A stretch of DNA of 38,018 nt. Origin: Candidatus Poseidoniia archaeon. GTDB taxonomy: Archaea; Thermoplasmatota; Poseidoniia; MGIII; CG-Epi1. Position numbers and translations under genes: made by a program. Each line of letters starts with the position of its first letter. Positions within the stretch are counted from its first letter, which is position 1. The notes under the pieces were generated by a model. The model was not told the DNA's origin, did no database searches, and saw only the letters and a list, made by a program, of their open reading frames with translations. Where the stretch lies: the NCBI GenBank assembly GCA_029941645.1, contig JAPYSZ010000003.1:1-38018 (forward strand), in the 5' to 3' direction. Shown here in pieces: positions 13,745 to 34,036 of this stretch.

Positions 13745-14442
13745 TGTATTATTTCATGGAATAATTCTTCTAGGTTCATGTTTTGATCATCCAATTCCTT
13801 TACTTTTATCATAGATTGTATTTCCCCATTGTGGATTATAGCTGCACGATCGCAAAGTCTTTGGGCATTTTCTAACAGATGTGTATTAAGAAAAACAGTC
13901 CCACCTTTGTCAACATACTGAATTAACCAATCTCTTACTTTTGTCTGTACAATTGGATCTAAATTTATGAATGGCTCATCCAAAAACATAAGGTCAGTGT
14001 CAGAAATAAAAGCGGCGGCAAGCATTACTTTTTGTTTTTGACCTCTAGATAAGTTTCGGCACACCCGTCCTTCCATTGCTTCTAGTTCAAAGAAAGTTAT
14101 CCATTCTTCAATATCTGGATTTTCAATTTGTCTTATTGATGCAACCATTTCTAGAACTTCTCTCGGAGTTAGAAAACTAGGCGGAGACTCTTGTTCAGGT
14201 ACGATGGCTATTTTCTTCTTTACATCTATTACGTTATCTTCAATATTCATTCCTAATATTTCTGCCGTACCTTCAGACGACTTAATCTGGCCTGTCAGAA
14301 TCTTTAGTAAGGTTGTTTTTCCAGCTCCATTCGGACCTAGTAATCCAAAAAATTCTCCTTTTTCTATTTCTAGATTTACTTTGTCAAGAGCTAATACATC
14401 CTCATATTTCTTTGATAATTTATTACAAGAGATTACGGCCAT
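13741..14442 (-). CDS. ABC transporter ATP-binding protein (ABC-2/exporter-like)
   Basis: 233 aa. Walker A GPNGAGKTT, Q-loop, signature LSRGQKQ, Walker B LMFLDEP and H-loop NTH. Confidence 0.9.
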   Translation of the reverse strand: MAVISCNKLSKKYEDVLALDKVNLEIEKGEFFGLLGPNGAGKTTLLKILTGQIKSSEGTAEILGMNIEDNVIDVKKKIAIVPEQESPPSFLTPREVLEMVASIRQIENPDIEEWITFFELEAMEGRVCRNLSRGQKQKVMLAAAFISDTDLMFLDEPFINLDPIVQTKVRDWLIQYVDKGGTVFLNTHLLENAQRLCDRAAIIHNGEIQSMIKVKELDDQNMNLEELFHEIIQ

Positions 14443-14444
14443 TA

Positions 14445-14951
14445 TTATTTGAACATGGACAATATATTCTGAGTTATAGTATTTTCATCTTTTTCGTCTA
14501 CTACTAATTCTTCGTCATCATTTCCAAAAATGGTATTTCTTAAGAGGTACATAGTGGAATTATATCCTAAACTATCTTTACCAATAAGTCTTACTGGCAA
14601 TGGTAGGAGTTCCCAAGTTTTATCTACAAAGCCTTGGTAATTTCCATCGTTAGAGACATAGGATGTACCTTTACTGGCAACTTTTTTCATTGAACTTATT
14701 ACTATTTTTGTAGCTACAGTTATCACAATTTTATCTATAGCCCCTTTAACAACTTTTTCAGTAGTTACTGCAGCTTCAGTAACTTTTTCTGTTGCTATTT
14801 CTCCTATTGCTTTAGCCGAGTCCATCACTTTATCGGTTGCTTCTGATGCCTTTTCTCTTAGTGTATCTATGCTTTTCGCTCCCATTTCAGTTGCTTTTTC
14901 CAATATTCCCTCATAATCTTTCTTTTCTTTATCCTTATCATCATCTGGCAT
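14445..14951 (-). CDS. Hypothetical protein: acidic/helical repeat N-terminus, one hydrophobic segment, globular C-terminus
   Basis: 168 aa. First gene of the ABC operon, with a 2-nt gap to the ATPase start. No recognisable motif. Confidence 0.5.
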   Translation of the reverse strand: MPDDDKDKEKKDYEGILEKATEMGAKSIDTLREKASEATDKVMDSAKAIGEIATEKVTEAAVTTEKVVKGAIDKIVITVATKIVISSMKKVASKGTSYVSNDGNYQGFVDKTWELLPLPVRLIGKDSLGYNSTMYLLRNTIFGNDDEELVVDEKDENTITQNILSMFK

Positions 14952-20072: not shown

Positions 20073-20438
20073 GTGTTCGTGCTGGGAGACGAGTACGTTC
20101 CTATAGGGATTTTTGCGCTTATTGCGCTTTCATTTCCTGTAATGACATTTTTCATCGGAAGGTTCTTCCGACCCCATAATGACAATGCTCTAAAAAATTC
20201 AACATATGAGTGTGGCGAGGTGCCTGTAGGTGAAGCTCATATACAATTTCATTTCCAATATTATATGTTTGCAATTTTGTTTGTGGTGTTTGATTTAGTC
20301 GTTGTATTCCTAATACTTTGGGTACAAGTATATCTTGACTTAGCAATAGCAGCCAAAGTTGTGATGTTGTTATTTTTACTTTTAACATTATTGGGGTTAT
20401 GGTATGCTTTTAGAAAGGAGGATGTAATCTGGATATGA
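20073..20438 (+). CDS. nuoA: NADH-quinone oxidoreductase (complex I) subunit A
   Basis: YECGE...FHFQYYMFAILFVVFDL is the NuoA/ND3 signature. The ORF-track start 19956 shares its ATG with the divergent panB ATG (CCATGG) and adds 39 non-homologous residues. GTG 20073 or 20079 gives the usual roughly 120-aa protein. Confidence 0.8.
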   Translation: MFVLGDEYVPIGIFALIALSFPVMTFFIGRFFRPHNDNALKNSTYECGEVPVGEAHIQFHFQYYMFAILFVVFDLVVVFLILWVQVYLDLAIAAKVVMLLFLLLTLLGLWYAFRKEDVIWI

Positions 20439-21076
20439 GTTCTAAAGGCGTACGTGGCAATCCAAGCCTTAGAAGAGGTGTCGGTTCTAAAACTACAGAT
20501 TCTGAAAAAATAATGGAAGATCCACCAGCGGGTGATTGGTTAGCATTAAGGTCGGATCAGTTACTCAAATGGATTGATGATGCCGTCTATAATGCAGCTG
20601 AAGCAACAGGTATGCGAGAGGTTGTTGACCGTGTTACACGGCCAATTTTTAATTATGCTCAAAGATTTTCACCTCATCCTTTGCACTTTGGTATAATGTG
20701 TTGTGCCATTGAAATGGGTCAGGCATCAGCTCCAGATCATGATATTGATAGATTAGGTTTGGTCTACCGTTCATCTCCAAGACAGTGTGATATTTTGATA
20801 GTCAATGGCCCCGTCTGTGAAAAATTAAGACCTAAATTGAAGACATTATACGAACAAATGCCTGAGCCGAAGTGGGTAATTGCCATGGGTGAATGCGCAA
20901 TCTCAGGAGGTCCATATTGGGATTCCTATTCTGTTGTTGCAGGTGCAGATACATTTATGCCCGTTGATGTTTACATACCAGGTTGTCCCGTCCGTCCAGA
21001 GGCTTTAATGCATGGTTTTCTAACTTTACAAAAGAAAATTAGAGAGAAAGAGCCAGGTATGTTTCTGAGGAGGTAA
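20435..21076 (+). CDS. nuoB: Complex I subunit B (N2 cluster) with an N-terminal extension of roughly 65 aa
   Basis: FGIMCCAIEM, MGECAISGGPY and IPGCPVRPE supply the four N2 cysteines. GGAGG Shine-Dalgarno; ATGA overlap with nuoA. Confidence 0.92.
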   Translation: MSSKGVRGNPSLRRGVGSKTTDSEKIMEDPPAGDWLALRSDQLLKWIDDAVYNAAEATGMREVVDRVTRPIFNYAQRFSPHPLHFGIMCCAIEMGQASAPDHDIDRLGLVYRSSPRQCDILIVNGPVCEKLRPKLKTLYEQMPEPKWVIAMGECAISGGPYWDSYSVVAGADTFMPVDVYIPGCPVRPEALMHGFLTLQKKIREKEPGMFLRR

Positions 21077-21078
21077 TT

Positions 21079-21558
21079 ATGGAGATAACTTCCTTTAAGC
21101 AGAAATTATCATCCTGTGAGGGTGTTACTGAAGTTTCAGTAATTAGAGATAATGTTGTTAAGTTAAATTTAGGAAATAAAGAATCTAAGGATTTTTTTAT
21201 TAAGTTAAGAGAAGATTATGGTTTTGAGCATTGTTCTTTAATCACTGCGATAGATAACCAACCCGAATTCGAATTAGTTTATCACTTTTCAGCAATAAAT
21301 GGTTCAGTTTTTGTTAAAAACAGCCCCTCTGCAGTAATGGTAGAGGTGCATGTATTTTTAGAACGGGACACGCCTACTATTGAATCCATTTCAGATCTAT
21401 GGGGTGGCGCTAATTGGCATGAAAGAGAGGCTTTTGATATGATGGGGATTTATTTTATTGGGCATCCTGACCTGCGTAGAGTACTTCTACCAGAGGGATT
21501 TGCTGGTCATCCATTAAGAAAGGATTACGTGTATGAGATACACGAGGAGGAGTGGTAA
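21079..21558 (+). CDS. nuoC: Complex I subunit C
   Basis: 159 aa. ANWHEREAFDMMGIYFIGHPDLRR is the NuoC/30-kDa signature. GAGGAGG Shine-Dalgarno. Confidence 0.9.
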   Translation: MEITSFKQKLSSCEGVTEVSVIRDNVVKLNLGNKESKDFFIKLREDYGFEHCSLITAIDNQPEFELVYHFSAINGSVFVKNSPSAVMVEVHVFLERDTPTIESISDLWGGANWHEREAFDMMGIYFIGHPDLRRVLLPEGFAGHPLRKDYVYEIHEEEW

Positions 21559-22652
21559 TGGCTGAAATGTGGATTAGTATGGGTCCTCAGCATCCTATGA
21601 CTCATGGGTTATGGACATTAAAAGTCAAAGTTGATGGAGAAACTATTGTTGATGCAGATCCTGAACTCGGCTATCTCCATCGGTCGGTGGAAAAGATGGG
21701 TGAACGTAGAAAGTATTTCATGAATACTACACTAACTGATAGGTTGTGTTATGCTAGTTCAACAACCTGGACCCATTGTTATGTCAATACAGTAGAAGAA
21801 TTAATGAAGGTAGAAGTTCCCCAGAGGGCAAAGTACATTCGTACAATTATGCTAGAATTACAGAGGCTTGCGTCTCATTTAATGTGGGCTGGTGCTTACA
21901 TGCCTGATTTAGGTCATATTACGGGGGCCTTGTATTTTTGGAGAGATAGAGAATTATTTTTGAATTTATTAGAAGCTCCAAGTGGTAGCCGTTTGTTGTA
22001 TAATTACATAAGGATTGGTGGTGTTAAGAGAGATTTACCTGATGGTTTTGAGGCTAAAACAGAACGAGTTATGAAATTGTTTGAGCAGAGATTAGATGAA
22101 TACGCTGATCTTTTTGAAAATTCTAAAATATTTAGAATGCGTACTGAGGATGTTGGAAAGTTCACAGCTTCACAAGCACAGAATTTGGGAATAACAGGAC
22201 CTAATCTAAGGGGTTGTGGTACTAAATTTGATTTGAGAAAACATGATGCTTATGAGATATATGATGAAGTTGATTGGGATATTCAAACTAGAGAAGCTGG
22301 CCCTGGATATGGTGATTGTTTCAGTAGATATATGGTAAGAATAGATGAAATGAAGGAATCAGTCCGTATTATACGTGATTGTTTCAAGAAAATGCCAGCA
22401 GGTCCAACGCTAGCGTCACAAATCCCCGTTCGTGCACAGGGAGAAGCATTTAGGCGTACTGAAGATTCTAGAGGTGAAGCTCTCATGTATGTTGTTGGTG
22501 ACGGTTCAGATAGGCCTTACAGATGGAAAATAAAGAGCCCGATGTTTACTACAATTTCAGCATGTCCTCATTATCTTAAAGGCTACAAAGTTGCAGACAT
22601 CCCTGCTATAATGGGAAGTATTGACATTTGTATAGGAGAGACAGACAAATGA
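21558..22652 (+). CDS. nuoD: Complex I subunit D
   Basis: MGPQHPMTHG, LGYLHRSVEKMGE, plus a C-terminal GSIDICIGETD(K). ATG 21558 (TAATG overlap) is preferred over the ORF-track GTG 21552. Confidence 0.92.
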   Translation: MAEMWISMGPQHPMTHGLWTLKVKVDGETIVDADPELGYLHRSVEKMGERRKYFMNTTLTDRLCYASSTTWTHCYVNTVEELMKVEVPQRAKYIRTIMLELQRLASHLMWAGAYMPDLGHITGALYFWRDRELFLNLLEAPSGSRLLYNYIRIGGVKRDLPDGFEAKTERVMKLFEQRLDEYADLFENSKIFRMRTEDVGKFTASQAQNLGITGPNLRGCGTKFDLRKHDAYEIYDEVDWDIQTREAGPGYGDCFSRYMVRIDEMKESVRIIRDCFKKMPAGPTLASQIPVRAQGEAFRRTEDSRGEALMYVVGDGSDRPYRWKIKSPMFTTISACPHYLKGYKVADIPAIMGSIDICIGETDK

Positions 22653-23881
22653 GTTTGTTCAGCTTCTGTAAATGGATGGCCGAGTGGACTGCTCAAAAGA
22701 TGCTTATACCTATATTTGAGTTTCAAGAGGGTTTGTTCCCTCCATTTACTAATCCAGCAGGTTCAATTGCGGATTGGTTAGGAACTGATGGCGGTATTAC
22801 GACACTAGCTTGGCTGTACGCAGTTAATATTGCATTTGCAGTGGGAATGACGAATCTGATTTTAGTTATACACTTAGAAAGAAAGATAGCTGCGCGTATC
22901 CAAGATCGTCGAGGGCCGATGCTTTCTTTCCGTTCATTTAGAGAGTTGGGTGAGGACTTAGCAGGTAGTGCACCTTCATGGAAATTTAAGGAGAATTATG
23001 CAGGTATAGGTATCCTTCAGAATCTGGCTGATGGTATCAAAGCAATTGCTAAGGAATTGATTGTCCCTGCTAAAGCGGATAAATTTCTCTTCACAATGGG
23101 TCCTATTATTTTCATTTCATCATCAGTATTTTTGTTAGTTCTTTTTCCTTTATCTGATAGATTTGCAGCTTCTTCAGCTCCTGCAGGTTTGATGGTGATT
23201 ATGGCTGCATTTTCAATTGCACCTATTGGAGTTTTAACTTCTGGTTGGGCTTCCAATAATAAGTATTCAATGATTGGAGGTATGCGTTCAGCAGCTCAGC
23301 TCATGTCATATGAAATTCCTTTGTTGCTGAGTATGGCTGGTGTCTTTCTCATGGCTGGTTCTTATGACCCTGTGGTTATTGTAGAACAGCAGCAAGCATC
23401 TTCTTGGTTCTTTGGGATTCCAATTTGGAATTTCATACCGCAGTTTATAGGTTTTATAGTATTTATGATATGTATTCTAGCTGAAGTTGAAAGGGTTCCT
23501 TTTGATCTTCCTGAAGCTGAAGCTGAATTAGTTGAAGGATGGACTACTGAATACAGTGGAATAAGATATATGTTCTTCTTGATGGCAGAATATATTCGAG
23601 GTTTTGCAGGTGCGGCGGTTGCTACGATTTTATTCTTAGGTGGTTGGGCAGGGCCTTGGCCAATTCCTCCAGAAATTTGGTTTTTAACTAAAGTCTATTT
23701 GATAATAATTTTCTGGATTTTTATTAGATGGTCTGTTCCTAGAATAAGGACCGATCAAATTTTAGAACTCGGATGGAAAAAATTATTGCCTTTATCATTA
23801 ATAAACCTTCTAATCGTAATATTTATGGTTGAGATTTACCCTTATTTTTCAGAAATAGTTAGCCTTCCGGAGGTATTCTAA
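22649..23881 (+). CDS. nuoH: Complex I subunit H with an N-terminal extension and a loop insertion
   Basis: ERKIAARIQDRRGP...LQNLADGIKAIAKE, EVERVPFDLPEAEAELVEGW.TEYSG and RWSVPRIRTDQ. ATG 22649 (ATGA overlap with nuoD) is preferred over 22628. Confidence 0.9.
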   Translation: MSLFSFCKWMAEWTAQKMLIPIFEFQEGLFPPFTNPAGSIADWLGTDGGITTLAWLYAVNIAFAVGMTNLILVIHLERKIAARIQDRRGPMLSFRSFRELGEDLAGSAPSWKFKENYAGIGILQNLADGIKAIAKELIVPAKADKFLFTMGPIIFISSSVFLLVLFPLSDRFAASSAPAGLMVIMAAFSIAPIGVLTSGWASNNKYSMIGGMRSAAQLMSYEIPLLLSMAGVFLMAGSYDPVVIVEQQQASSWFFGIPIWNFIPQFIGFIVFMICILAEVERVPFDLPEAEAELVEGWTTEYSGIRYMFFLMAEYIRGFAGAAVATILFLGGWAGPWPIPPEIWFLTKVYLIIIFWIFIRWSVPRIRTDQILELGWKKLLPLSLINLLIVIFMVEIYPYFSEIVSLPEVF

Positions 23882-23882
23882 A

Positions 23883-24659
23883 ATGAAGAGTGAAAGAGAC
23901 CTTGGCATAATGGATATAATTGTAAATCCAATGAAAGTTACCTTAAAACAGTTTTTCAAGTCAACATTTGGCAAACCTACAACAGTAATGTATCCTCTTG
24001 AAAAAAGAGCTCCGCCCCCTACCTATAGAGGTATGAATGCTGTAATCTGGGATCTTTGTATTGGATGTGGCATATGTGGTGAAGTTTGTCCTAATAAATG
24101 TTTGAAGATGAAACCTGTCGATTTATCGGATGAAGAGCAGGACAAGGCTTGGTATGGTTCACACTTAGCTAAGAGGAAAAGTAAGGCTGAACGACCTGCA
24201 ATTAATTTTGGTCATTGTATGTTTTGTGGTTTTTGTGAGGACTATTGCCCTACTGGTGCCATGACAATGACGGATTTTTATGAATTAGCAGACACAACGC
24301 GTGAGGGTTTGATTTATCCTGCAAGATCTATGAAAGTTGATTTAGAAGACGCTCCTCAATTACCACTTACAAATTATATGATGGAATCTCCTGTTTTAGA
24401 TGCAGATCCTTGTATTGGCTGTAGTAAATGTGTGGATAATTGTCCTACTAATTGTATTATTATGGATCTAGGTCCACAAAATAAGAAAATGAAGAGTGGC
24501 AAAGTTCGAAATGTAGAAAATCCTTACTTTGATTATACTATTTGTATTGGCTGTTCAACTTGTGTTAAGGTATGTCCTGCAGACTGTTTGCATATGGAAC
24601 CTATTAGCAATTCTAGTTCCAGTGGTTTAAGTGAGGAGGGTGCTTCTAACGAGGCTTGA
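23883..24659 (+). CDS. nuoI: Complex I subunit I (2x[4Fe-4S]) fused to an additional C-terminal 2x[4Fe-4S] ferredoxin domain
   Basis: 258 aa with four CxxCxxCxxxCP motifs: CIGCGICGEVCP, CMFCGFCEDYCP, CIGCSKCVDNCP and CIGCSTCVKVCP. Canonical NuoI has two. Confidence 0.9.
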   Translation: MKSERDLGIMDIIVNPMKVTLKQFFKSTFGKPTTVMYPLEKRAPPPTYRGMNAVIWDLCIGCGICGEVCPNKCLKMKPVDLSDEEQDKAWYGSHLAKRKSKAERPAINFGHCMFCGFCEDYCPTGAMTMTDFYELADTTREGLIYPARSMKVDLEDAPQLPLTNYMMESPVLDADPCIGCSKCVDNCPTNCIIMDLGPQNKKMKSGKVRNVENPYFDYTICIGCSTCVKVCPADCLHMEPISNSSSSGLSEEGASNEA

Positions 24660-24928
24660 TATTTTTGGCTTTAGATCTCCTTGTTTTCTGGTTTTTAGCC
24701 GGTTTAATCTTAGCTGCAGCTTGGGCAGTGGTTAATGGGAACGATATTGTTCACTCAGTCGTTTGGTTATCTACTGTATTTCTTTTGACAGCAGGCCTAT
24801 TCATTTTGGCAGAGGCTGAGTTTTTAGCAGTTATTCAGGTTTTAGTCTATGTGGGTGCTATTTCGGTTGTTATAATTTTTGGAATTATGCTAACTAAAAG
24901 AACGTTGAAGGGAGGAGAAGATGTCTAA
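24656..24928 (+). CDS. nuoJ: Complex I subunit J, N-terminal part (TM1-3)
   Basis: 90 aa. AEAEFLAVIQVLVYVGAISVVIIFGIML is the NuoJ/ND6 TM3 signature. TTG start overlaps the nuoI TGA. Confidence 0.85.
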   Translation: MIFLALDLLVFWFLAGLILAAAWAVVNGNDIVHSVVWLSTVFLLTAGLFILAEAEFLAVIQVLVYVGAISVVIIFGIMLTKRTLKGGEDV

Positions 24929-25709
24929 CCGTACAGTAATTTGGGTTCGGGATGCCTTAGTGATATTTTTTTCATTTTATGTTGTTTTTGCTGTAGCTTC
25001 TGTTCCGTGGGCTAATCTGAAAGTTTCCCCTCCTCTTCCAGAGACTTGTGAAACGGGTTGTCCACCTGTAGTTAGCTTTCCAGAAAATGGATATTATCAT
25101 TATCAGAATTCTGTTACTTTTGAGTGGAGTTCAGTTTCTGTTGGTTACAGAATTGTAGTTACTGAAGTTGATACTGGCGATGTAAAAATGGATAAGAATA
25201 TAACTAATGAAGTAACTTCAACAACGTCTAGATTACCAGCAGGTACTTATCTTACAAGAGTATATTATACGGGAATTGCAGGTTCAACATTTAGCACATA
25301 TCCTATATTAAAATCTGAATTTGTAACTATTGAAACTTCTTCAAAGATTACTATGGTTTGGCCTGAGGTTAGTGTAACTTATGGTTTAGAAATTAGGGTT
25401 ATTAAGGAGGCGGAAAATGAATTGCCTGAAATTGTTAAAGTCTATGAAGTTAATATGTTAGAGGAATCATCCTACACTTATTCTGATTTTGAAAATGGTA
25501 AATCTTATTCTTGGTCAGTTTATGTCCAGGATTCAAAAGGATATACTTCGGCGTCATCTCCTTTTCATGTAGTTAATATAGATACTACTAAATTTTTGGC
25601 TTTTGAACTTTTTAATAATTGGGAAGTCCCTTTCATTCTTTTAGGAGTTATGATGGTTATAGCAATGCAAGCAGGTGTTTTTCTGGCAAGGGAGGAACTA
25701 AATGATTGA
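24921..25709 (+). CDS. nuoJ: Complex I subunit J, C-terminal part (TM4 + TM5), with a soluble tandem-repeat insertion of roughly 190 aa between the helices
   Basis: 262 aa. N-terminal TM (VIFFSFYVVFAVASV). C-terminal LAFELFNNWEVPFILLGVMMVIAMQAGVFLAREE resembles the NuoJ C-terminus. The middle holds two roughly 85-aa repeats (VTFEWSSVSVGYRIVV... and ITMVWPEVSVTYGLEIRV...). GGGAGG Shine-Dalgarno; 8-nt overlap with the upstream ORF. Confidence 0.75.
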   Translation: MSNRTVIWVRDALVIFFSFYVVFAVASVPWANLKVSPPLPETCETGCPPVVSFPENGYYHYQNSVTFEWSSVSVGYRIVVTEVDTGDVKMDKNITNEVTSTTSRLPAGTYLTRVYYTGIAGSTFSTYPILKSEFVTIETSSKITMVWPEVSVTYGLEIRVIKEAENELPEIVKVYEVNMLEESSYTYSDFENGKSYSWSVYVQDSKGYTSASSPFHVVNIDTTKFLAFELFNNWEVPFILLGVMMVIAMQAGVFLAREELND

Positions 25710-26004
25710 TCCAATTAATTTTGTTGTATTCTCTTCTATTTTATTGCTGATTGGAGCATATGGAGTAATTCGAAATAAGAATGCTATTGTTGTTTTGATG
25801 TCTGTTGAAATAATGCTTACAGCAGCCAACGTAAATTTTATAGCTTTTTCAAGCTTTTACAATGATTTATCAGGTCAAATAGTTGCGTTATTCGTTACAA
25901 CAATTGCTGCGGCTGAAGTTGCAATAGGTTTGGCAATATTGTTGAGTTTGTTTAAACAAAGAGATACTATTGAGTTAGATTTACTGAATAGTTTGAGGTG
26001 GTAA
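25702..26004 (+). CDS. nuoK: Complex I subunit K
   Basis: 100 aa, 3 TM. LMSVEIMLTAANVNF and TIAAAEVAIGLAILL carry the conserved Glu residues. Confidence 0.92.
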   Translation: MIDPINFVVFSSILLLIGAYGVIRNKNAIVVLMSVEIMLTAANVNFIAFSSFYNDLSGQIVALFVTTIAAAEVAIGLAILLSLFKQRDTIELDLLNSLRW

Positions 26005-26005
26005 A

Positions 26006-28186
26006 ATGTCAAATAATGATAATCAAAATTCTGAATCTGACTTGTTGAGGTTTATTTCATTAAGTTTGGCAGCTTCACTTATTCTGTTTTATTTTTCTAC
26101 AGATGGTTTGGCAGATGATTTCGTTAGTGTAGCTTGGATGATTCCTGTTTTTCCTATTGTTTCATTCGTGGCAATTTTGTTATTTGGGCACATGGATTCA
26201 AGAAAAGGTGGTTCTTTTGCTCTAGCAGGTATTGGTTTATCTGCAGTATTTTCTTTAGCCATTGCCTACGATGTTCTGATACAAAATTCATTACATGGAG
26301 AGTATGTAGAATCAACTAGAACTTGGTTTAGTGGTGCGACTTATTCTTTTGATTTTGGTACGTATGTTGATGCCTTAGCTGCGTTGTTGTTGTTAGTAGT
26401 CGGTTTGGTTTCCTATCTTGTCATTGTTTTTTCAACAAGTTATATGGAGGAAGAAGGCGATCGCCAAGTAAGATACTTTGCAGAAATTTCTCTTTTCGTT
26501 GGAGTTATGCTCGGTTTGGTCGTAGCAAATTCATTCTTATTAATGTTTATTTTCTGGGAGTTAGTTGGTGTTTGTTCTTATCTTCTAATTGGTTTCTGGT
26601 ATGAGAAGCCATCCGCAGCTTCGGCAGCTAAAAAGGCGTTTTTGGTTACACGAGTAGGTGATGTGTTTTTGCTGATGGGGTTAGTTATACTATACAGTAC
26701 ATTCGGTACACTTAGATATTCAGAATTGTTCGATAACCCTGAAGATTTAGCAGCTAATGCTACAGAATTGAAATGGGCTACACTTTGTATATTCGGTGGT
26801 GCTGTTGGCAAATCGGCTCAATTTCCGTTACATGTATGGCTTCCAGACGCCATGGAAGGCCCTACTACAGTATCAGCACTGATACATGCTGCAACGATGG
26901 TCAAGGCTGGTGTTTTTTTGGTTGCTCGAGCTTATCCTTTGATTGTTCATAGTCCTGATACAGCAATTTACATTGCAGTAACGGGGGGTGTTACAGCATT
27001 CATCGCAGCTAGCATGGCTATGGTGATGTATGATATCAAAAGGGTTCTCGCTTATTCGACAATTTCTCAATTGGGGTATATGTTCCTTGCATTAGGTACA
27101 GGCGCTTGGGCTGTCTGGCATGCTGCAGAAAATGGAATAGAAGATCATGCTCAAGGGTATACTGCAGGTTTATTCCATTTGATGAATCATGCATTTTTCA
27201 AGGCTTTACTTTTCCTTGGTTCTGGTGCTGTTATACATTCAGTACACACTCAGGATATGCGAGAGATGGGTGGTTTACGCAAAGGTATGCCCATTACATC
27301 TGCGGCTATGGGTTTGGGTGTTCTTTCCATTGCTGGAGTTCCATTTTTCTCAGGTTTTTGGTCTAAGGATGAGATTCTTGAAGCAGTTCATCATAATTCC
27401 GAGGCAGAAGGTATTTTCGGTATATTGTGGTGGCTTGCACTGTTGACTGCAGCCATGACGGCTTTCTATATGACTCGATTATGGATGATGACTTTCAGTG
27501 GTCCGGAAAATCGTGTTGTTGAAGAAATGGTAGAGTCTAAAGACCATGCTGAAACGGGTAATTGGGAACTCAAGTCAAAGACGATTAAGTCCCATGCGCA
27601 CGAGGCACCTCTTGCTATGACTGCACCTCTTATGATTTTAGCTTCTCTTGCCGTCTTTTCTGGATTTTCGTTATTCCTTGGTGAGGGTTTTGGATCTAGA
27701 GTGTATTATGGCCATCATGCAGATTCTGAGTCTATGATTCAATGGTCTATCTTAGATCATATTCTAACATCATCTTTGACTTATCTTTCAGTTATTGTTG
27801 GTTTGAGTGGTGTTACTTTGGGTTATTTGTTCTATAAACGTGATTCTGAAGGTCAAACTACTTTCTCACCAGCGTTTGTAGAATCTTTTGCTGTAACCAG
27901 TTACTTGCATGTTTTTCTTTCGAATAGACTTTACATGTCAAAATTTTTTGATTGGTTTGGTATGAGAACCTGGGATACTGTTGCTAGGGCATGTGATTGG
28001 TTTGATATTTACATCATTGACGGTATAGTGAATGGTGTGGCTTCAGCTTCACAGTTTTTCAGTAGTCAAGTGAGAAAACTTAACTCAGGTTTTACAGGTC
28101 ATTATGCTTCACTTACAGTTGGTGGTTTGGGAGCTCTTGTAGTTATTACTAGAATAATAATGCCCTTTATGGGATGGTCACTATGA
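26006..28186 (+). CDS. nuoL: Complex I subunit L (antiporter-like, long C-terminal lateral helix region) with an extra N-terminal hydrophobic segment
   Basis: 726 aa. WELVGVCSYLLIGFWY, GKSAQFPLHVWLPDAMEGPT.VSALIHAATMV, AYSTISQLGYMF and HAFFKALLFL. GAGGTGG Shine-Dalgarno. Confidence 0.93.
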   Translation: MSNNDNQNSESDLLRFISLSLAASLILFYFSTDGLADDFVSVAWMIPVFPIVSFVAILLFGHMDSRKGGSFALAGIGLSAVFSLAIAYDVLIQNSLHGEYVESTRTWFSGATYSFDFGTYVDALAALLLLVVGLVSYLVIVFSTSYMEEEGDRQVRYFAEISLFVGVMLGLVVANSFLLMFIFWELVGVCSYLLIGFWYEKPSAASAAKKAFLVTRVGDVFLLMGLVILYSTFGTLRYSELFDNPEDLAANATELKWATLCIFGGAVGKSAQFPLHVWLPDAMEGPTTVSALIHAATMVKAGVFLVARAYPLIVHSPDTAIYIAVTGGVTAFIAASMAMVMYDIKRVLAYSTISQLGYMFLALGTGAWAVWHAAENGIEDHAQGYTAGLFHLMNHAFFKALLFLGSGAVIHSVHTQDMREMGGLRKGMPITSAAMGLGVLSIAGVPFFSGFWSKDEILEAVHHNSEAEGIFGILWWLALLTAAMTAFYMTRLWMMTFSGPENRVVEEMVESKDHAETGNWELKSKTIKSHAHEAPLAMTAPLMILASLAVFSGFSLFLGEGFGSRVYYGHHADSESMIQWSILDHILTSSLTYLSVIVGLSGVTLGYLFYKRDSEGQTTFSPAFVESFAVTSYLHVFLSNRLYMSKFFDWFGMRTWDTVARACDWFDIYIIDGIVNGVASASQFFSSQVRKLNSGFTGHYASLTVGGLGALVVITRIIMPFMGWSL

Positions 28187-30036
28187 GATACTTTTTTGCC
28201 TTGTTATTAGTTATACTTTTACTTCCTGTAGCCTCAGGCGAGGATCATACTGTGATGGTTGGAACTGAATCTGATACTTATGTTTTCAGTCCTGCCGTTC
28301 TTAAAATTTCACCAGGTGATAATGTGACATTTCTCTGGACGCCAGGTATGCCTCATAATGTAGCCGAAGTCGAGAATTCTGAATCTTTAACTTACAACGA
28401 CGGATTCCGTTCTGGTGAACCTCAAGACGGAGGTGAATGGGCACTTCCATCTAATTTGACTGCAGAAGATGGAACACTCTATTACGTATGTGAACCGCAT
28501 GCAGGAATGAAGATGCGAGGAGAAATCATCATTCAGAGTGCTCCTGAAATCGCTATGGAATTTGGGGACTTTCCTTGGCTTTCTTATCTATTGGTTTTCC
28601 CTCTAATAGGTGCCTTATGGACCTTTGGTTTTAGAGAAAATACTAATGCGCCAAGAATCATAGCATTATTTACAACTTTATTCACATTGATTATTTCAAT
28701 TATTGTATTTGTAAAAACAGGAAATAAGTCTGGATATAGTTTGATGGAGCAATATGATTGGGCCCCTAATTTTGGTATTTCATTACTTCTTGGAGTTGAT
28801 GGTCTTAGTTCGCCAATGGTTTTGTTAACAGGTATAATAGGACCTTTAACGGTTATATTTGCTTGGCATGAGAAAGAGAAACCAGCTTTGTTCTTCGTAC
28901 TTCTCTTAGTTATGCAAACAGCTCTTTTTGGTGTGTTTATTACTCTAGATTATTTTGTTTTCTATATATTTTGGGAGATTGTTTTGATACCAATGTTTTT
29001 CCTTATAGCCATTTGGGGTGGGGATAATCGACGCTATGCCTCAATTAAATTTTTCATTTACACTTTTACAGCATCACTAGTAATGTTAATTGGATTTATG
29101 GCACTTTATTTCGAAACAGGTGGTGAAACTTTTTCTATGATAGAAATAGCTAAGCAAAATGGCAATTTTTCTGAAGATTTTCAAAAGTGGGTTTTTGCAG
29201 CTTTATTTATTGGATTTGCAGTTAAGATTCCTTCAGTACCTTGGCACACTTGGTTGCCAGACGCTCATGTTGAGGCACCTACAGCAGGATCTATCCTTCT
29301 AGCAGGAGTCATGCTGAAAATGGGACTTTATGGTCTTATTCGTGCTGCTTTACCAGTTGTACCGCTTGGGGCTGAATATTTTGTTCCAGTTATGGTTGTT
29401 TTAGCTATAGTTTCCATACTTTACGGAGCGGCATTAAGTCTGGGTCAGACAGATTTAAAGAAATTAGTTGCATATTCTAGTGTTTCTCATATGGGTGTGG
29501 CGTTATTGGGTGTAGCTACAATGACCGAATTGGGTCTAGCAGGTGCAGTTTTCATGATGTTTGCCCACGGTATTCTAAGCCCAGCCATGTTTATGGTTGC
29601 AGGAGTTCTTTTGCATCAAGTAGGAACAAGAGACATTCCAAAACTAGGGGGTCTTGCTAAACATCAACCTAATACTGCTGGAATCTTTGTTGTTATATTC
29701 TTGGGAAGTCTTGGTCTTCCAGGTATGGCTGTTTTCGTTGCAGAATTAGCTGTTTTTATTGCTTTCTTCCAGTCTCATGGTTATTGGTTGCTTCTTCCTA
29801 TATTTGGTATGGTGCTTACTGCAGGTTATCATTTATGGGCATTACAGAGGGCCGTATTCGGAGTGGATAGTGAACAAATAGATATGTCTGATGTTCATGA
29901 GGCACCATGGTATGAAATGTACCCTATGTTTTCTATTATCCTATTAGCAGTTTTCTTTGGTATATTTCCGCATTATCTTATGGATCCTATATCTGTAGCA
30001 TGTTATGACATCTTGAATTTTATGGGGGCTATCTAA
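28183..30036 (+). CDS. nuoM: Complex I subunit M with an N-terminal signal peptide + cupredoxin (type-1 copper) domain fusion
   Basis: N-terminus MRYFFALLLVILLLPVASG, then ...PGDNVTFLWTPGMPHNV...YYVCEPHAGMKM (His, Cys-x2-His-x2-Met). The NuoM core follows: FWEIVLIPMF, KIPSVPWHTWLPDAHVEAPT.GSILLAGV.LK and AYSSVSHMG. ATG 28183 (ATGA overlap with nuoL) is preferred over 28174. Confidence 0.9.
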   Translation: MRYFFALLLVILLLPVASGEDHTVMVGTESDTYVFSPAVLKISPGDNVTFLWTPGMPHNVAEVENSESLTYNDGFRSGEPQDGGEWALPSNLTAEDGTLYYVCEPHAGMKMRGEIIIQSAPEIAMEFGDFPWLSYLLVFPLIGALWTFGFRENTNAPRIIALFTTLFTLIISIIVFVKTGNKSGYSLMEQYDWAPNFGISLLLGVDGLSSPMVLLTGIIGPLTVIFAWHEKEKPALFFVLLLVMQTALFGVFITLDYFVFYIFWEIVLIPMFFLIAIWGGDNRRYASIKFFIYTFTASLVMLIGFMALYFETGGETFSMIEIAKQNGNFSEDFQKWVFAALFIGFAVKIPSVPWHTWLPDAHVEAPTAGSILLAGVMLKMGLYGLIRAALPVVPLGAEYFVPVMVVLAIVSILYGAALSLGQTDLKKLVAYSSVSHMGVALLGVATMTELGLAGAVFMMFAHGILSPAMFMVAGVLLHQVGTRDIPKLGGLAKHQPNTAGIFVVIFLGSLGLPGMAVFVAELAVFIAFFQSHGYWLLLPIFGMVLTAGYHLWALQRAVFGVDSEQIDMSDVHEAPWYEMYPMFSIILLAVFFGIFPHYLMDPISVACYDILNFMGAI

Positions 30037-31526
30037 TGGACGATTCTATCTTCTTTTTGCCTGAAATATTGATGGTAGTGAGTATAATAGGTATTCCAGC
30101 CCTTTATATTTTGACAGAGAATAATAAGTCATATTCCATATGTTCTAATATTTCTTTAGGTTTTGCATTCATGTTTTTAGTTCTTTCATGGTATTACCCT
30201 GATTTCTTATCGTTAGATAAAAGTGGTTTGGTATCCTATGATCATTTTAGAGTAGATGATTTTTCTCAATTATTCAAGATTATCTTTGTTTTAACAGCTT
30301 TAGTAGTTTCTATTGTAAGTACTTCTTACTTTGATGATGAAGAGCCTCATCAAGCTGAGTATTACACACTCCTTCTTTCCAGTACTTTGGGAATGCTGGT
30401 TGTTGCCTCAGCTACTGATTTCTTAACTCTGTTTTTGGGAATAGAAATATCTGCGTTTAGCAGTTATGCAATGGTTGCTTTTAGAAAACAGGATGATAAA
30501 TCAACGGAAGCTGGAGCAAAATATCTTTTGATTGGTGCATTTTCTTCAGGTTTAACTCTTTATGGCATTTCATTATTGTATGCTATTACTGGTTCTTTGA
30601 CATTTGATGGTGTTAGTTCATTTATGCACGGAATTAGCAATGGAGTTGTTGTTGGAGATTTTACTGAAGTAATATTTATTTCTTGTTTGTTCATAATGGC
30701 AGGTTTAGGTTTTAAGATAGCAGTAGTTCCATTCCATGCTTGGGCTCCTGATGTTTATCAGGGAGCACCTACGCCAGTTACTACTCTTCTTGCTGCTGCC
30801 AGTAAGGCGATGGGTTTCATTGCAGTTTTTAGAGTATTTGCGTTTACTTTAGAATCAGTTTCAGAGGAATGGAAATTAGTTTTGGGAATTATTGCTTTAG
30901 CTTCTATGACTGTAGGTAATTTGGCAGCTATCTCACAGAAGGATATTGGGAGAATGTTGGCATATTCTTCAATTGCTCAAGCTGGTTATATTATGATTGC
31001 AATTCCAGCTCTTACTGAAGAAGCAATGTCCGGTGCTATTGCTCATACATTAGTACATGCATTTATGAAAGGTGGAGCCTTTGTCATAGTTGGATGTATA
31101 GGGGCGGTAGGTTTGGGTTATAATTTGGAATCATATAAGGGATTGGCAAAGAGATCCCCGTTGTTAGCACTTTCAATGACAGTTTGTTTACTATCTTTGG
31201 TTGGTATACCTCCTTTTGCAGGTTTTATTAGTAAATTTTTCTTATTCTATGGAACTTTACAGGCAGGGCTTGCTGGAGAATCTTGGATTATTGCTTTGGT
31301 AATTGGAGGAATTCTAAATTCAGCATTGTCTCTCTATTATTATTTGAAAGTTATAAGATATATGTATCTCTATGATCCCGAAGATTCGGGCGAGGTTGAG
31401 TTCCCTAATTCAGTTAGGTACATCTCCTTTGGAGTAATTCTGTTATTAGCAGTATTCTTCCCATTATATTGGGAATCTCTTTTTGAACTTTGTAAGGAAG
31501 CTTCAATAGCTTTGATTAATGGATGA
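30036..31526 (+). CDS. nuoN: Complex I subunit N
   Basis: 496 aa. GIEISAFSSYAMVAF, FKIAVVPFHAWAPDVYQGAPTPVT and AYSSIAQAGY. TAATG overlap with nuoM. Confidence 0.92.
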   Translation: MDDSIFFLPEILMVVSIIGIPALYILTENNKSYSICSNISLGFAFMFLVLSWYYPDFLSLDKSGLVSYDHFRVDDFSQLFKIIFVLTALVVSIVSTSYFDDEEPHQAEYYTLLLSSTLGMLVVASATDFLTLFLGIEISAFSSYAMVAFRKQDDKSTEAGAKYLLIGAFSSGLTLYGISLLYAITGSLTFDGVSSFMHGISNGVVVGDFTEVIFISCLFIMAGLGFKIAVVPFHAWAPDVYQGAPTPVTTLLAAASKAMGFIAVFRVFAFTLESVSEEWKLVLGIIALASMTVGNLAAISQKDIGRMLAYSSIAQAGYIMIAIPALTEEAMSGAIAHTLVHAFMKGGAFVIVGCIGAVGLGYNLESYKGLAKRSPLLALSMTVCLLSLVGIPPFAGFISKFFLFYGTLQAGLAGESWIIALVIGGILNSALSLYYYLKVIRYMYLYDPEDSGEVEFPNSVRYISFGVILLLAVFFPLYWESLFELCKEASIALING

Positions 31527-31783
31527 TTGATAAGGAAAGTAAGGAATATATTCAATTCGAAAACTTGTGGTCAGGAACTACACCCAAGGGGACAAATAAA
31601 AGTAAAAGAGATACATTTCGGTCACGGATGAAAAATTCTTGTCAACAACAAGGCATAGGATTCAGTAAAATAAATTCATTTAGGATATTTTCAGGTGAAA
31701 TAAAGGCTTTAGATTCTGATACTCATAAGGTTGGAGATGTTAAAGTAACTAAACCACCTAGAAGACATCTGCGTGGAATTTAG
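31523..31783 (+). CDS. Hypothetical basic 86-aa protein trailing the nuo operon
   Basis: ATGA overlap with the nuoN stop. It fills an otherwise 231-nt gap in a gap-free genome, and the plus strand is purine-rich like other soluble-protein genes here. No motif recognised. Its last 26 nt overlap the convergent polyprenyl synthase. Confidence 0.35.
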   Translation: MIDKESKEYIQFENLWSGTTPKGTNKSKRDTFRSRMKNSCQQQGIGFSKINSFRIFSGEIKALDSDTHKVGDVKVTKPPRRHLRGI

Positions 31784-32756
31784 TTTTATCACTTGCAATT
31801 AATTCATTCGAAAATGACATAGGAACTTGCTCTAACAATAGTTTATGTGATGAATCTGGAACTTCTTCTAGATATTTTCTAGACATTTCTTGCCAAGGAG
31901 AGATAAGTTCTTCAAAGATATTTTGAGCGTCGGTAATTTTCACATGTTCAATTATTTTATCTGCCTTTCCTGTTTTTACAAAAATATCAATGGCTCCTTT
32001 GTATTCAGGATGTCTACTTAGTCTGGTTACAGGCAAAGTAGGAATTCCAAGCGCCAAGTCACCTATGGCTGTTTTAGTTATAATGGAATTTAGTAAATCT
32101 AGATAATCGTCAGTTATTTGATACATAATACCTACTGTTTCTCCAAATTTGTGCATTTGGGATGCTAAATCGATACGTGGTGAGACTAATGCACCTAATT
32201 CGGCAGCTGTACTATACAATGCACCTGTTTTTCTTTTAATTCTATCAAGATATACCGATTCACTGTAATTCTCTTTATCTGTAAAATCGGCAATAGCACC
32301 TTCAGTTAGATTTCTAGCGCATACAGCCAGTGATTTTCCAGTGGCCAATGATATAGCACCGTGAAGTGAACCTGTTGCAACCATCAGATCCGCAACTAAA
32401 ATTGCAGTTCTTGGCCCTAATTCGTCCCATAAGGCCGGTGCTTCTCTTCTAAATCTATCTCCATCCAACCAATCATCGTGTATCAAAGTTCCACAATGAA
32501 TTAATTCAAGCGCCATGCCACATTCAAAAGCAGAATGTGCGTCTCCACCTAACGAATCAGAAACTAGTCTACAAAGTATAGGTCTAAGTTGTTTTCCTTC
32601 GCCTATTCCTTTTGAAATTAGAGGTGCAATAGATTTTGATTCTTTACTTATTTCTCTTTCAAGATGCCTTTGAAATTCTGTTTTTACATCTCTATAATAG
32701 TCATTCAAGTTAACTGAGAATGCTGTGTGTTTTTTAACTTCATTCTTTTCTTTCAT
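31758..32756 (-). CDS. trans-Polyprenyl diphosphate synthase (probable quinone side-chain synthase)
   Basis: 332 aa. First Asp-rich motif LIHDDWLDGDRFRR, second ITDDYLD, and KTGALY between them. Small residues (Gly, Thr) at -5/-4 before the first motif suggest a medium or long chain product (inference). Confidence 0.85.
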   Translation of the reverse strand: MKEKNEVKKHTAFSVNLNDYYRDVKTEFQRHLEREISKESKSIAPLISKGIGEGKQLRPILCRLVSDSLGGDAHSAFECGMALELIHCGTLIHDDWLDGDRFRREAPALWDELGPRTAILVADLMVATGSLHGAISLATGKSLAVCARNLTEGAIADFTDKENYSESVYLDRIKRKTGALYSTAAELGALVSPRIDLASQMHKFGETVGIMYQITDDYLDLLNSIITKTAIGDLALGIPTLPVTRLSRHPEYKGAIDIFVKTGKADKIIEHVKITDAQNIFEELISPWQEMSRKYLEEVPDSSHKLLLEQVPMSFSNELIASDKTKFHADVF

Positions 32757-32758
32757 AT

Positions 32759-34036
32759 TTAGATGTATTCAAGCCCGATAATTAGTAAAATTCCAGTTAT
32801 TGCATGTATTCCTATAGTTCCCCAGTTTGCACCTGCTAATTCACGTGTATTATAATTGCGGATTACTTGGTATGAATAGTAGAGTGCTATCGGCAATCCT
32901 AACAGAGAAAGAAGAGCCCCTTGTTCAACAATGTCATATGTGTATAAGGCATATATGGATCCAAAGGCTGCTAACATTAAGATTAGGTAACCCCAACTAG
33001 CTTTTTCAAGTCCTAATACTACTACTAGATGATGTTTTCCTGCAATTTCGTCAGATTTACTATCAGGGAACTGATTAATCCAGAGGATTGCAGTTGTTAG
33101 AAGCCCTAGTGGTATTCCAAATAGAAATGCGTCCCATGAGTGTATTCCAGACATTGCAAAGATAGCCCCCATAGTCATCAAAGGCCCATAATTCAAACCA
33201 ATTAGTAGTTCTCCTATACCTTTGCGAGCTACTAATCTTAGAGGATATCCTGTGTAGAAATAACCTGAAAATGCTCCTGCAAGTCCATAATATAACAATT
33301 CAACTTTATCATCTAGCATAATTATTAATCCCGCTAAACCAGCTAATGCTAGGAAAGTTGTTGCTAATTTGAATAACTGTTTTTCAGTGATTAGCCCTAA
33401 TTCAATAGCTCTACTTCCTCCAGATAGTTGTAGAAAATAGTCATTGTTAATTTGATCGGTTCCACTGGTCCAATCAAAATAATCATTGTACGTATTTGCA
33501 GCTAAATGTAGGAACGAACCTCCTAAGAAAACTAGGGTAAAAGTCATCCAATTCATGGTGATAAGCTCTTCGTGTATACCCCACACAACACTAGCTATGA
33601 TAGGAATCCAGGTAGCACTGAGAAAGGGCAGTCTTGTTATTGCTACGATTGAGATTATTTTCGTTAATAGTGAAGTTTTTGGCATGGTTTCTTCGGGTGA
33701 GGTATCTACTAGTTCTTTTGTTCGGCCACAATATCCAATATGTTTTCCATCTTTCATTGTAGCAGTACATGTAAATTCGGCAGCAAATTGTGTTCCATCT
33801 TTTCGTATGAATGTGCTTTTTGTGGTATATCCGTTCTTGTTTTGTCTTGCTTTTTTTAACCAATTTGCAACATGTCCTAAAACAACCATACCCGGAGAAA
33901 ATAATGATACTCTTTTCTTTCCAATGACTTCATCTGCAGTGTATCCGAATATTTTTTCTGCATGTTCATTAAAGCTCTCAATCCTACCTTCAGTATCACA
34001 TGTAATTATGCTAACTATTTTGTCAGATTCTGCCAT
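32759..34036 (-). CDS. menA: PAS domain fused to a UbiA-family prenyltransferase of MenA type (1,4-dihydroxy-2-naphthoate polyprenyltransferase-like)
   Basis: 425 aa. Residues 1-108 have PAS fold signatures (ITCDTEGRIESFNEHAEKIFGYTADEVIGK...IRKDGTQFAAEF...DGKHIGYCG). The TM body carries ANTYNDYFDWTSGTD and NQFPDSKSDEIAGKHHLVVVLG, close to E. coli MenA NDYGD..KG.D and RDINSDRENGKNTLVVRLG. Confidence 0.85.
   Translation of the reverse strand: MAESDKIVSIITCDTEGRIESFNEHAEKIFGYTADEVIGKKRVSLFSPGMVVLGHVANWLKKARQNKNGYTTKSTFIRKDGTQFAAEFTCTATMKDGKHIGYCGRTKELVDTSPEETMPKTSLLTKIISIVAITRLPFLSATWIPIIASVVWGIHEELITMNWMTFTLVFLGGSFLHLAANTYNDYFDWTSGTDQINNDYFLQLSGGSRAIELGLITEKQLFKLATTFLALAGLAGLIIMLDDKVELLYYGLAGAFSGYFYTGYPLRLVARKGIGELLIGLNYGPLMTMGAIFAMSGIHSWDAFLFGIPLGLLTTAILWINQFPDSKSDEIAGKHHLVVVLGLEKASWGYLILMLAAFGSIYALYTYDIVEQGALLSLLGLPIALYYSYQVIRNYNTRELAGANWGTIGIHAITGILLIIGLEYI

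Follow-up and report, generated by a model that had tools for sequence, protein, structure and literature searches.

A stretch of 38,018 nucleotides from a Candidatus Poseidoniia archaeon of Marine Group III (MGIII; contig JAPYSZ010000003.1 of assembly GCA_029941645.1), hereafter the window, contains an operon for a complex I-type quinone reductase whose subunits NuoI, NuoM and NuoJ carry additional domains. The operon occupies positions 20079-31783 of the forward strand, on which all of its genes lie, and consists of thirteen tightly coupled genes: nuoA, nuoB, nuoC, nuoD, nuoH, nuoI, nuoJ1, nuoJ2, nuoK, nuoL, nuoM, nuoN and a final gene for an 86-residue protein, orf86. The intergenic gaps range from -13 to +2 nt, with ATGA-type overlaps and with GGAGG-like Shine-Dalgarno sequences upstream of most starts. 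On its two sides the operon is flanked by a divergent panB gene (PF02548) and a convergent polyprenyl synthase gene (PF00348). All 11 core subunits of complex I are encoded, each with an above-cut-off Pfam match; NuoJ is represented by NuoJ1 (PF00499) together with the C-terminus of NuoJ2, which has a weak NCBIfam match to NuoJ, and the PF00361 domain is found in NuoL, NuoM and NuoN alike.

A Pfam scan of the 29 larger open reading frames (ORFs) of the 38-kb window revealed no members of the NuoE, NuoF, NuoG or FrhB/FpoF families, and tblastn searches of the window and of 86 related loci gave no match to NuoE/F-like sequences; that is, the N-module (NuoE, NuoF and NuoG) of the canonical 14-subunit NADH:quinone oxidoreductase is missing from the scanned ORFs of the window. 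A complex I without NuoEFG has been reported in haloarchaea (PMC8305020), and NCBIfam has separate models for the two halves of a split NuoJ. Along with the lack of NuoEFG, both the division of NuoJ and the small extensions of NuoB, NuoH and NuoL described below are ordinary. The initial annotation of this stretch had listed the same core subunits with a split NuoJ, the tight coupling with its overlaps and ribosome-binding sites, the absence of NuoE/F/G and FpoF in or beside the operon and the two flanking genes, all of which was borne out; its count of twelve ORFs fell one short.

For comparison, a scan at one genome per species yielded 79 loci, in all of which ORFs were called and matched to the thirteen window proteins. 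The nearest loci belong to MGIII (Poseidoniia), with 75-93% NuoM identity, followed by Marine Group II (MGII, Poseidoniales) with about 48%. The MGIII loci include single-cell genomes (L004, L030) and metagenome-assembled genomes (MAGs) labelled MGIII-CG-Epi1-LRMED (L011, L015, L017, L018), and the conservation counts for MGIII given below refer to 28 intact loci from independent assemblies. A sister lineage is represented by locus L029 (59% G+C), whose Nuo proteins are about 60% identical to those of the window.

The NuoI protein (nuoI, 23883-24659; 258 amino acids) has four Fer4 stretches with four CxxCxxCxxxCP motifs, and its 16 cysteines are all invariant among the window protein and 19 representatives sharing 25-64% identity. 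The NuoI, NdhI and TYKY chains of solved complexes match residues 24-155 only. For residues 156-247, the alignments are to individual repeats of the polyferredoxins MvhB and FwdF and, in NCBIfam, to PorD and RnfB; compared with these polyferredoxins, the window protein has one such repeat, which is fused to a bona fide NuoI. The extra 2x[4Fe-4S] module (residues 156-245, 24348-24617) has a ratio of nonsynonymous to synonymous substitutions (dN/dS) of 0.036. An AlphaFold2 model built from 20 sequences reached a predicted local distance difference test score (pLDDT) of 82.6 and a predicted template modelling score of 0.71, with both ferredoxin modules above 90 in pLDDT. In Foldseek searches this model aligned over approximately 135-185 columns to NuoI of solved complexes and over more than 210 columns to FwdF only. 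NuoI is thus a canonical core plus one polyferredoxin-like module. With NCBIfam NF010590 (PRK13984) the window protein scores 95.5 bits over its N-terminal part only, against a cut-off of 946, and it has no flavoprotein module, so that it is not a member of that family.

The four-motif layout extends beyond MGIII. Among 1.84 billion representative proteins, searched exhaustively with HMMER, it was found in about 20 further 50%-identity clusters, which are mostly archaeal and show 25-47% identity. The features that delimit this group, an N-terminal LYPxE region and four CxxCxxCxxxC(P) motifs in tandem di-cluster modules, are all present in the window NuoI. The genomic contexts recovered for other four-cluster NuoI proteins are archaeal nuo operons, one of them with nuoABCDHI. 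The four-cluster NuoI is therefore a real subfamily that is wider than MGIII and specific neither to the window operon nor to its lineage. One archaeal nuo operon of this kind (L082:987-15083) encodes a four-cluster NuoI of 359 residues, four antiporter-like subunits and a 140-residue NuoJ2, with the beta and alpha genes of an electron transfer flavoprotein (ETF) directly upstream and no adjacent nuoB. At another locus (L081:9367-14677, GCA_030157145.1), genes for a NuoB homologue and for a four-cluster protein resembling NuoI occur with no membrane subunits alongside; they adjoin genes for a luciferase-like oxidoreductase, a Rieske protein and an HdrD-like CCG protein. The pair may be a soluble relative of the Q-module.

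The NuoM protein (nuoM, 28174-30036; 620 amino acids; PF00127 and PF00361) is composed of a signal peptide, a plastocyanin domain and a core of 14 transmembrane helices (TM) that starts at residue ~132. The predicted Sec-type signal peptide comprises residues 1-22 (28174-28239), with hydrophobic residues 1-19 and a cleavage site between VASG and ED that is suggested by the sequence; it is weakly conserved and evolves fast. The following plastocyanin-type blue-copper domain (residues 23-121, 28240-28536) matches Pfam PF00127 (Copper-bind) at residues 27-120 with E=1e-11 and 45.6 bits against a cut-off of 21.2, and its best match is parsley plastocyanin 1PLA, to which it aligns end to end (phmmer, E=2e-10). 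The PHN motif and the segment YYVCEPHAGMKM line up with the His and C-x2-H-x4-M ligand motifs of plastocyanin and provide the ligands His61, Cys106, His109 and Met114. Among 73 full-length sequences, Cys106, His109 and Met114 are conserved in 99-100% and the His61 column in at least 98%, at domain identities down to 53% and with a dN/dS of 0.074 relative to the closest relative. As judged from its sequence, the domain is a true plastocyanin with an intact predicted type-1 copper site.

The NuoM core aligns with canonical NuoM, NdhD and ND4 from residue ~132, equivalent to residue 3-4 of E. coli NuoM and of NdhD1. Because the linker between the plastocyanin domain and TM1 is only ~11 residues long, the copper site would be fixed near the outer surface of NuoM. 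The combination of PF00127 and PF00361 is precomputed on all 72 full-length (at least 600 residues) NuoM homologues among the best matches, whose source names, where given at all, read only 'NADH-quinone oxidoreductase subunit M', and there are more than 70 protein clusters of full-length fused NuoM. The domain is present on NuoM in 28 of the 28 intact MGIII loci; neither L029 nor any MGII locus has it. No separate cupredoxin gene was found near the related nuo operons.

The third addition resides in the second half of NuoJ. The nuoJ2 gene (24921-25709) encodes TM4, an insert and TM5, followed by the C-terminus that gives the weak NCBIfam match noted above. In an AlphaFold2 model based on 38 sequences (pLDDT 72), helices at residues 4-26 and 223-261 enclose two all-beta blocks at residues 65-137 and 144-219, and nearly all of the top 50 Foldseek matches are tandem FN3 pairs, with a top-match probability of 0.99-1.0. 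These structural comparisons define a tandem FN3-like pair in the TM4-TM5 loop (residues 41-222, 25041-25586). Sequence evidence for FN3 is weak in the window protein (Big_13, E=0.005), and PF00041 is precomputed on some of its orthologues. The insert of ~190 residues is the fastest-evolving part of the operon, yet it is constrained (dN/dS 0.18-0.31, 38-84% identity). About 100 protein clusters of NuoJ2 exist, mostly unnamed or called 'hypothetical protein', and none has an informative source name. Ahead of the first FN3 domain, in an outward-facing linker that the model predicts with low confidence, NuoJ2 has an invariant C43-x3-C47...H60 pattern (25047-25100), which could be a disulfide or a metal site, conceivably for copper, near the plastocyanin.

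The last gene of the operon, orf86 (31523-31783), overlaps the nuoN stop and encodes a soluble, basic protein of 86 residues (isoelectric point 10.1) without any hydrophobic segment. It is always the last operon gene, both in the 26 of 26 MGIII loci that reach that position and in the L029 lineage. The protein shows 46-91% identity, 24 invariant residues and a dN/dS of 0.09; these last two observations rule out a spurious ORF overlapping the convergent gene. It has no Pfam or NCBIfam match and no PDB-sequence profile match at E<=10, in searches that included kinship to NdhS, FpoO and Nqo15. Among the sampled lineages, orf86 occurs only where the closest four-cluster NuoI occurs, namely in MGIII and L029.

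The MGIII loci that are intact at the relevant position share the whole set: a NuoI of 258-259 residues with four motifs, NuoJ1 of ~87, NuoJ2 of 251-274, NuoL of ~725, NuoM of 620-638 and NuoN of ~497 residues, and the 86-residue last gene. The additions to NuoI, NuoM and NuoJ2 are kept in 28 of 28 intact loci, and the dN/dS of 0.04-0.18 across the additions indicates purifying selection. The second 2x[4Fe-4S] domain of NuoI, the signal peptide and cupredoxin of NuoM, the tandem beta-sandwich loop of NuoJ and the extra 86-residue ORF after nuoN had all been proposed in the initial annotation, which also suggested counting how often the first three co-occur; each of them holds, and the three occur together in every intact MGIII locus. 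The extensions that it had pointed out in NuoB, NuoH and NuoL are present as well, but they are modest, and larger ones occur in MGII. Its broader picture of a remodelled respiratory complex with its own input wire and an outward-facing copper site stands as far as the architecture is concerned, and the input wire gains support from a flavoprotein inserted into the same NuoI domain of the sister lineage (see below); the proposed electron-transfer functions of the clusters and the copper site go further than the architecture does, and the four-cluster NuoI turned out not to be lineage-specific.

In the L029 lineage, NuoI is a protein of 719 residues (L029:3914-6070, forward strand), and equivalent genes were found at L083:10001-12181 and L084:2704-4884. 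Past motif 3, this NuoI continues with Fer4_20 and then with an FAD- and NAD(P)H-binding Pyr_redox_2 domain, which is the architecture of GltD, NfnB and SudA. After this inserted module of ~480 residues, it resumes at NPFFDYTICIGCASCVTACP (motif 4), collinear with NPYFDYTICIGCSTCVKVCP of the window NuoI. Fe-S motifs 3 and 4, both in the second ferredoxin domain, hence flank the insertion, and the nuo operon is otherwise collinear with that of the window. GltD-bearing NuoI is limited to two 90%-identity protein clusters, the second of which is 88% identical and has the same operon order on five contigs; since this order is kept, the fusion is real. The nearest relatives of the insert are bacterial flavoproteins of ~1100 residues with ~50% identity, and the insertion therefore looks like a late acquisition. 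L029 NuoI scores 335 bits against PRK13984, below the cut-off of 946, and so falls outside that family. The placement of an NAD(P)H-oxidising module within the extra ferredoxin domain speaks for a surface-exposed position of this domain and for electron entry there, and the insertion resembles a built-in substitute for NuoEFG. A GltD-like gene was found neither in the window nor at up to 10 kb from any of the MGIII nuo operons.

The remaining subunits form a conventional core. The nuoD gene (21552-22652; PF00346, E=1e-84) encodes a protein of the quinone-reductase type without the Cys pairs of NiFe enzymes, which aligns over its full length to NdhH and Nqo4 and has NdhH of cyanobacterial NDH-1 as its best solved relative. 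Its motifs GPQHPMTHG and DRLCY align to their counterparts, and its C-terminus reads IDICIGETDK instead of DPCxxC. The nuoB product (20435-21076; PF01058) has the N2-cluster motifs CCAIEM, GECA and GCP. In Thermus complex I, the corresponding residues of these two subunits serve as the quinone-site His and Tyr and as the N2 ligands. By sequence motifs, NuoD is of the quinone-reducing kind and NuoB has the predicted N2 ligands. The nuoC gene (21079-21558; PF00329, E=2e-38) lies between nuoB and nuoD. For nuoA (20079-20438; PF00507, E=6e-25) the start is uncertain, either the GTG at 20079 or that at 20073; the mechanically called ORF, from an ATG at 19956, overlaps the panB start, and orthologues begin at query residues 26-42. 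The probable start of nuoH (22649-23881; PF00146, E=5e-98) is the ATG at 22649, which overlaps the nuoD stop (ATGA); the mechanical ORF begins at a TTG at 22628, and orthologues start at residue 8.

The extensions mentioned above amount to ~25-45 residues at the N-terminus of NuoB, whose core begins at residue ~55-70 in PDB alignments, to ~33 extra N-terminal residues and a ~24-residue insert in the TM1-TM2 loop of NuoH, and to ~35-40 extra N-terminal residues of NuoL, which include one hydrophobic helix or stretch according to hydropathy, with PDB alignments starting at residue 41. NuoL (nuoL, 26006-28186; PF00662 and PF00361) has 726 residues. The nuoJ1 gene (24656-24928) covers profile positions 2-62 of 146 in PF00499 and encodes TM1-3 of NuoJ; nuoK (25702-26004; PF00420) and nuoN (30036-31526; PF00361) complete the membrane arm. 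In one MGIII MAG, NuoL and NuoM form a single ORF of 1234 residues (L024:10001-12546), probably owing to a frameshift or a lost stop codon in the assembly.

Among known systems, the NuoEFG-less 11-subunit complex I of haloarchaea and many bacteria shares with the window the core subunits, the gene order, the absence of an N-module and the J1/J2 split; MGIII adds to it two NuoI clusters, the NuoM plastocyanin, the NuoJ2 FN3 pair and the 86-residue gene. Ferredoxin is the suspected donor of such complexes (PMC8305020, PMC3144371). The NDH-1 of cyanobacteria and chloroplasts (6HUM, 6KHI, 6L7O) provides the best solved relatives of the window NuoD, NuoH, NuoL and NuoM. It likewise lacks NuoEFG, and in it ferredoxin delivers electrons to NdhI aided by small accessory subunits. 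However, no homologue of NdhS, NdhV or NdhO was detected in the window, NdhI has two clusters whereas the window NuoI has four, and the plastocyanin of the NDH-1 system is free in the lumen rather than a domain of NdhD.

Sulfocyanin SoxE of the Sulfolobus SoxM supercomplex is a membrane-held archaeal blue-copper carrier. Halocyanin, which is lipid-anchored, and the halocyanin-CbaD fusion OE_4073R likewise hold type-1 copper at the outer membrane face, replacing soluble cytochrome c (PMC8305020). In contrast to these carriers, the anchor in MGIII is an antiporter-like subunit of complex I, and not an oxidase or a lipid. The closest parallel to the L029 NuoI is found in the mbx-like complexes of Thermotoga and proteobacteria (PMC4758237), where a GltD-like flavoprotein is known at the NuoI position, and in NF010590/PRK13984; both unite a NuoI-type di-cluster domain with a GltD-like NAD(P)H module. 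The L029 module differs in its position within a second ferredoxin domain and in belonging to a full nuo operon of the quinone type, and the window NuoI has no flavoprotein at all. Two other identities were considered and rejected. A hydrogenase of the MBH/MBX type is ruled out by the quinone-type NuoD. For an F420H2 dehydrogenase (Fpo/Fqo), the NCBIfam FpoI model gives 86.9 bits against a cut-off of 180, no match to the FrhB/FpoF family was found in the window, and orf86 is without matches.

The MGII loci differ from MGIII in having NuoJ split into 89 and 90 residues with no insert, and in lacking both the cupredoxin and orf86; the L029 lineage, for its part, has a larger NuoJ2 insert than MGIII. 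Among the MGII loci (L031-L079, e.g., L032:5676-6647 and L032:4063-5664), NuoI has 317-446 residues and two Fe-S motifs with a long insert between them, NuoH has 507-562 and NuoN ~560 residues, and the extra regions of NuoI, NuoH and NuoN have no Pfam match.

Taken together, these observations would fit a complex I-type quinone reductase of MGIII that is fed by ferredoxin or a dehydrogenase on the cytoplasmic side and bears a tethered copper carrier on the outside, a reading that, taken as a whole, we give about an even chance. A low-potential donor, most likely reduced ferredoxin and alternatively a docking dehydrogenase, would deliver electrons on the cytoplasmic side. The entry point would be the two additional [4Fe-4S] clusters of NuoI, which may extend the wire outward from N6a in the place of NuoG; from there the electrons would pass via N6a, N6b and N2 to the membrane quinone, coupled to proton pumping by NuoL, NuoM and NuoN. 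The basic orf86 product may aid the binding of an acidic donor. In the literature, the NuoEFG-less NDH-1 is accepted to receive its electrons from ferredoxin docked on NuoI. The plastocyanin domain would lie outside the electron path of complex I itself because it is too far from the quinone site, and for the same reason it is most likely a tethered one-electron carrier between a quinol-oxidising complex and a terminal oxidase, as halocyanin and sulfocyanin are in other archaea. Given the short NuoM linker, such a role would place the partner complexes beside the membrane arm. The NuoJ2 FN3 pair is probably a structural spacer or a docking element on the outer face. Halocyanin is a one-electron carrier of haloarchaea of which a CbaD fusion exists (PMC8305020), and MGII archaea transcribe halocyanin and plastocyanin genes at high levels (PMC9723583).

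Several points weigh against the ferredoxin-fed, copper-tethered complex. Genes for ferredoxin, 2-oxoacid:ferredoxin oxidoreductase, Rieske/cytochrome b and terminal oxidase were found neither in the window nor within 10 kb of related nuo operons. Downstream of the MGII nuo operon there are only housekeeping and acyl-CoA carboxylase genes and no respiratory partners. The window also encodes an 886-residue pyruvate dehydrogenase E1 of the bacterial AceE type (4383-7043, reverse strand) in an archaeal genome, which implies NADH-producing pyruvate oxidation and suggests that NADH rather than ferredoxin may be a major reductant. In the published topologies, NuoM has its N-terminus outside, and NuoJ has five helices with the N-terminus outside and the C-terminus inside, so that the TM4-TM5 loop of NuoJ2 would face outward on the same side as the NuoM N-terminus. 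The presumed position of the plastocyanin domain outside the cytoplasm rests on this topology and on a signal-like segment, and that of the FN3 pair outside the cell on the NuoJ topology. The assignment of orf86 as a donor-binding accessory subunit is a guess for a protein with no detectable relatives. Finally, the AlphaFold models are cofactor-free.

The strongest alternative, which we regard as possible though rather unlikely, is an NAD(P)H:quinone oxidoreductase, in which a GltD/NfnB-like or other dehydrogenase encoded elsewhere docks on the extra NuoI domain as an alternative N-module, MGIII then being the unfused state of what is fused in the L029 lineage. The covalent insertion of a flavoprotein in the same NuoI domain of the sister lineage speaks for it, as do the NADH-producing pyruvate dehydrogenase E1 encoded in the window and the ETF genes directly upstream of the L082 nuo operon with its four-cluster NuoI. 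However, neither GltD-like nor NuoE/F-like genes were found in the window or within 10 kb of the MGIII nuo operons, and the restriction of the insertion to two 90% clusters with bacterial kin at ~50% identity suggests a recent acquisition rather than an ancestral partner.

The outward domains might also have no part in electron transfer at all, an explanation that we consider improbable. The cupredoxin would then be structural, copper-buffering or copper-sensing, and the FN3 pair would act as a spacer, touching the S-layer or lending stability to the membrane arm of a cell that has no outer membrane. The ~11-residue linker, which would keep the domain from swinging between distant partners, is consistent with this, and so are the fast evolution of the FN3 pair (38-84% identity, dN/dS 0.18-0.31), as expected for a surface spacer, and the lack of partner complexes nearby. 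The retention of the copper ligands in 98-100% of sequences at domain identities down to 53% (dN/dS 0.07) argues against it, since a purely structural domain could lose them, as does the full-length match to true electron-carrier plastocyanins. That the fusions are artefacts of chimeric assembly, frameshifts or mis-called ORFs is scarcely conceivable, despite two database entries of MGIII NuoM without cupredoxin (P0073 and P0074) and the merged NuoL-NuoM ORF of L024, because the ORFs are uninterrupted in 28 of 28 intact MGIII loci from independent assemblies including single-cell genomes, which rules out an assembly chimera as far as can be read from DNA, because more than 70 fused clusters exist and every addition is under purifying selection, and because P0073 starts 122 nt from a contig end and is thus truncated, while P0074 was not located.

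A more far-reaching version of the ferredoxin-fed, copper-tethered complex, which we advance as a doubtful speculation, would make the MGIII complex I the hub of a supercomplex, with the NuoM plastocyanin as its built-in carrier and the second NuoI ferredoxin domain as a universal input socket. The quinol-oxidising complex and the terminal oxidase may then be docked on the membrane arm, with the NuoJ2 FN3 pair in the docking surface, and the socket may take ferredoxin in MGIII, with a GltD-type flavoprotein inserted there in the sister lineage.

Beyond the operon, the convergent polyprenyl synthase gene (31758-32756, reverse strand) adjoins a gene for a UbiA-family prenyltransferase with an N-terminal PAS domain (32759-34036, reverse strand), and the order nuoN, orf86, polyprenyl synthase, PAS-UbiA is preserved in L085 and L086. 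These two enzymes may serve quinone or lipid synthesis under redox or ligand control. Elsewhere in the window there are genes for the thermosome, aIF2-gamma, deoxyhypusine synthase and the ribosomal proteins S6e, S9, L13 and L18e. Two reverse-strand genes, for proteins of 478 (12308-13744) and 168 residues (14445-14951), have no Pfam match and flank an ABC-transporter ATPase gene (13741-14442).

No description of the NuoM-cupredoxin fusion, the FN3-bearing NuoJ, the four-cluster NuoI or the 86-residue gene was found in the literature searched, and a brief mention in the main MGIII genome paper (ISME J 2017) is possible. Apart from the larger NuoJ2 insert of L029, MGIII alone was observed to have the NuoM-plastocyanin fusion and the FN3-bearing NuoJ2. 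How the NuoEFG-less complex I of archaea is fed with electrons is a long-standing question. The extended NuoI, together with a relative that holds an NAD(P)H flavoprotein in the same extension, offers a concrete and testable entry site and a natural pair of enzymes to compare; if the second ferredoxin domain does act as an input socket, it would show how an N-module can be acquired independently of NuoEFG. If functional, the copper carrier on NuoM would imply an obligatory proximity of complexes I, III and IV in these abundant uncultured ocean archaea, and would link their respiration to the supply of copper.

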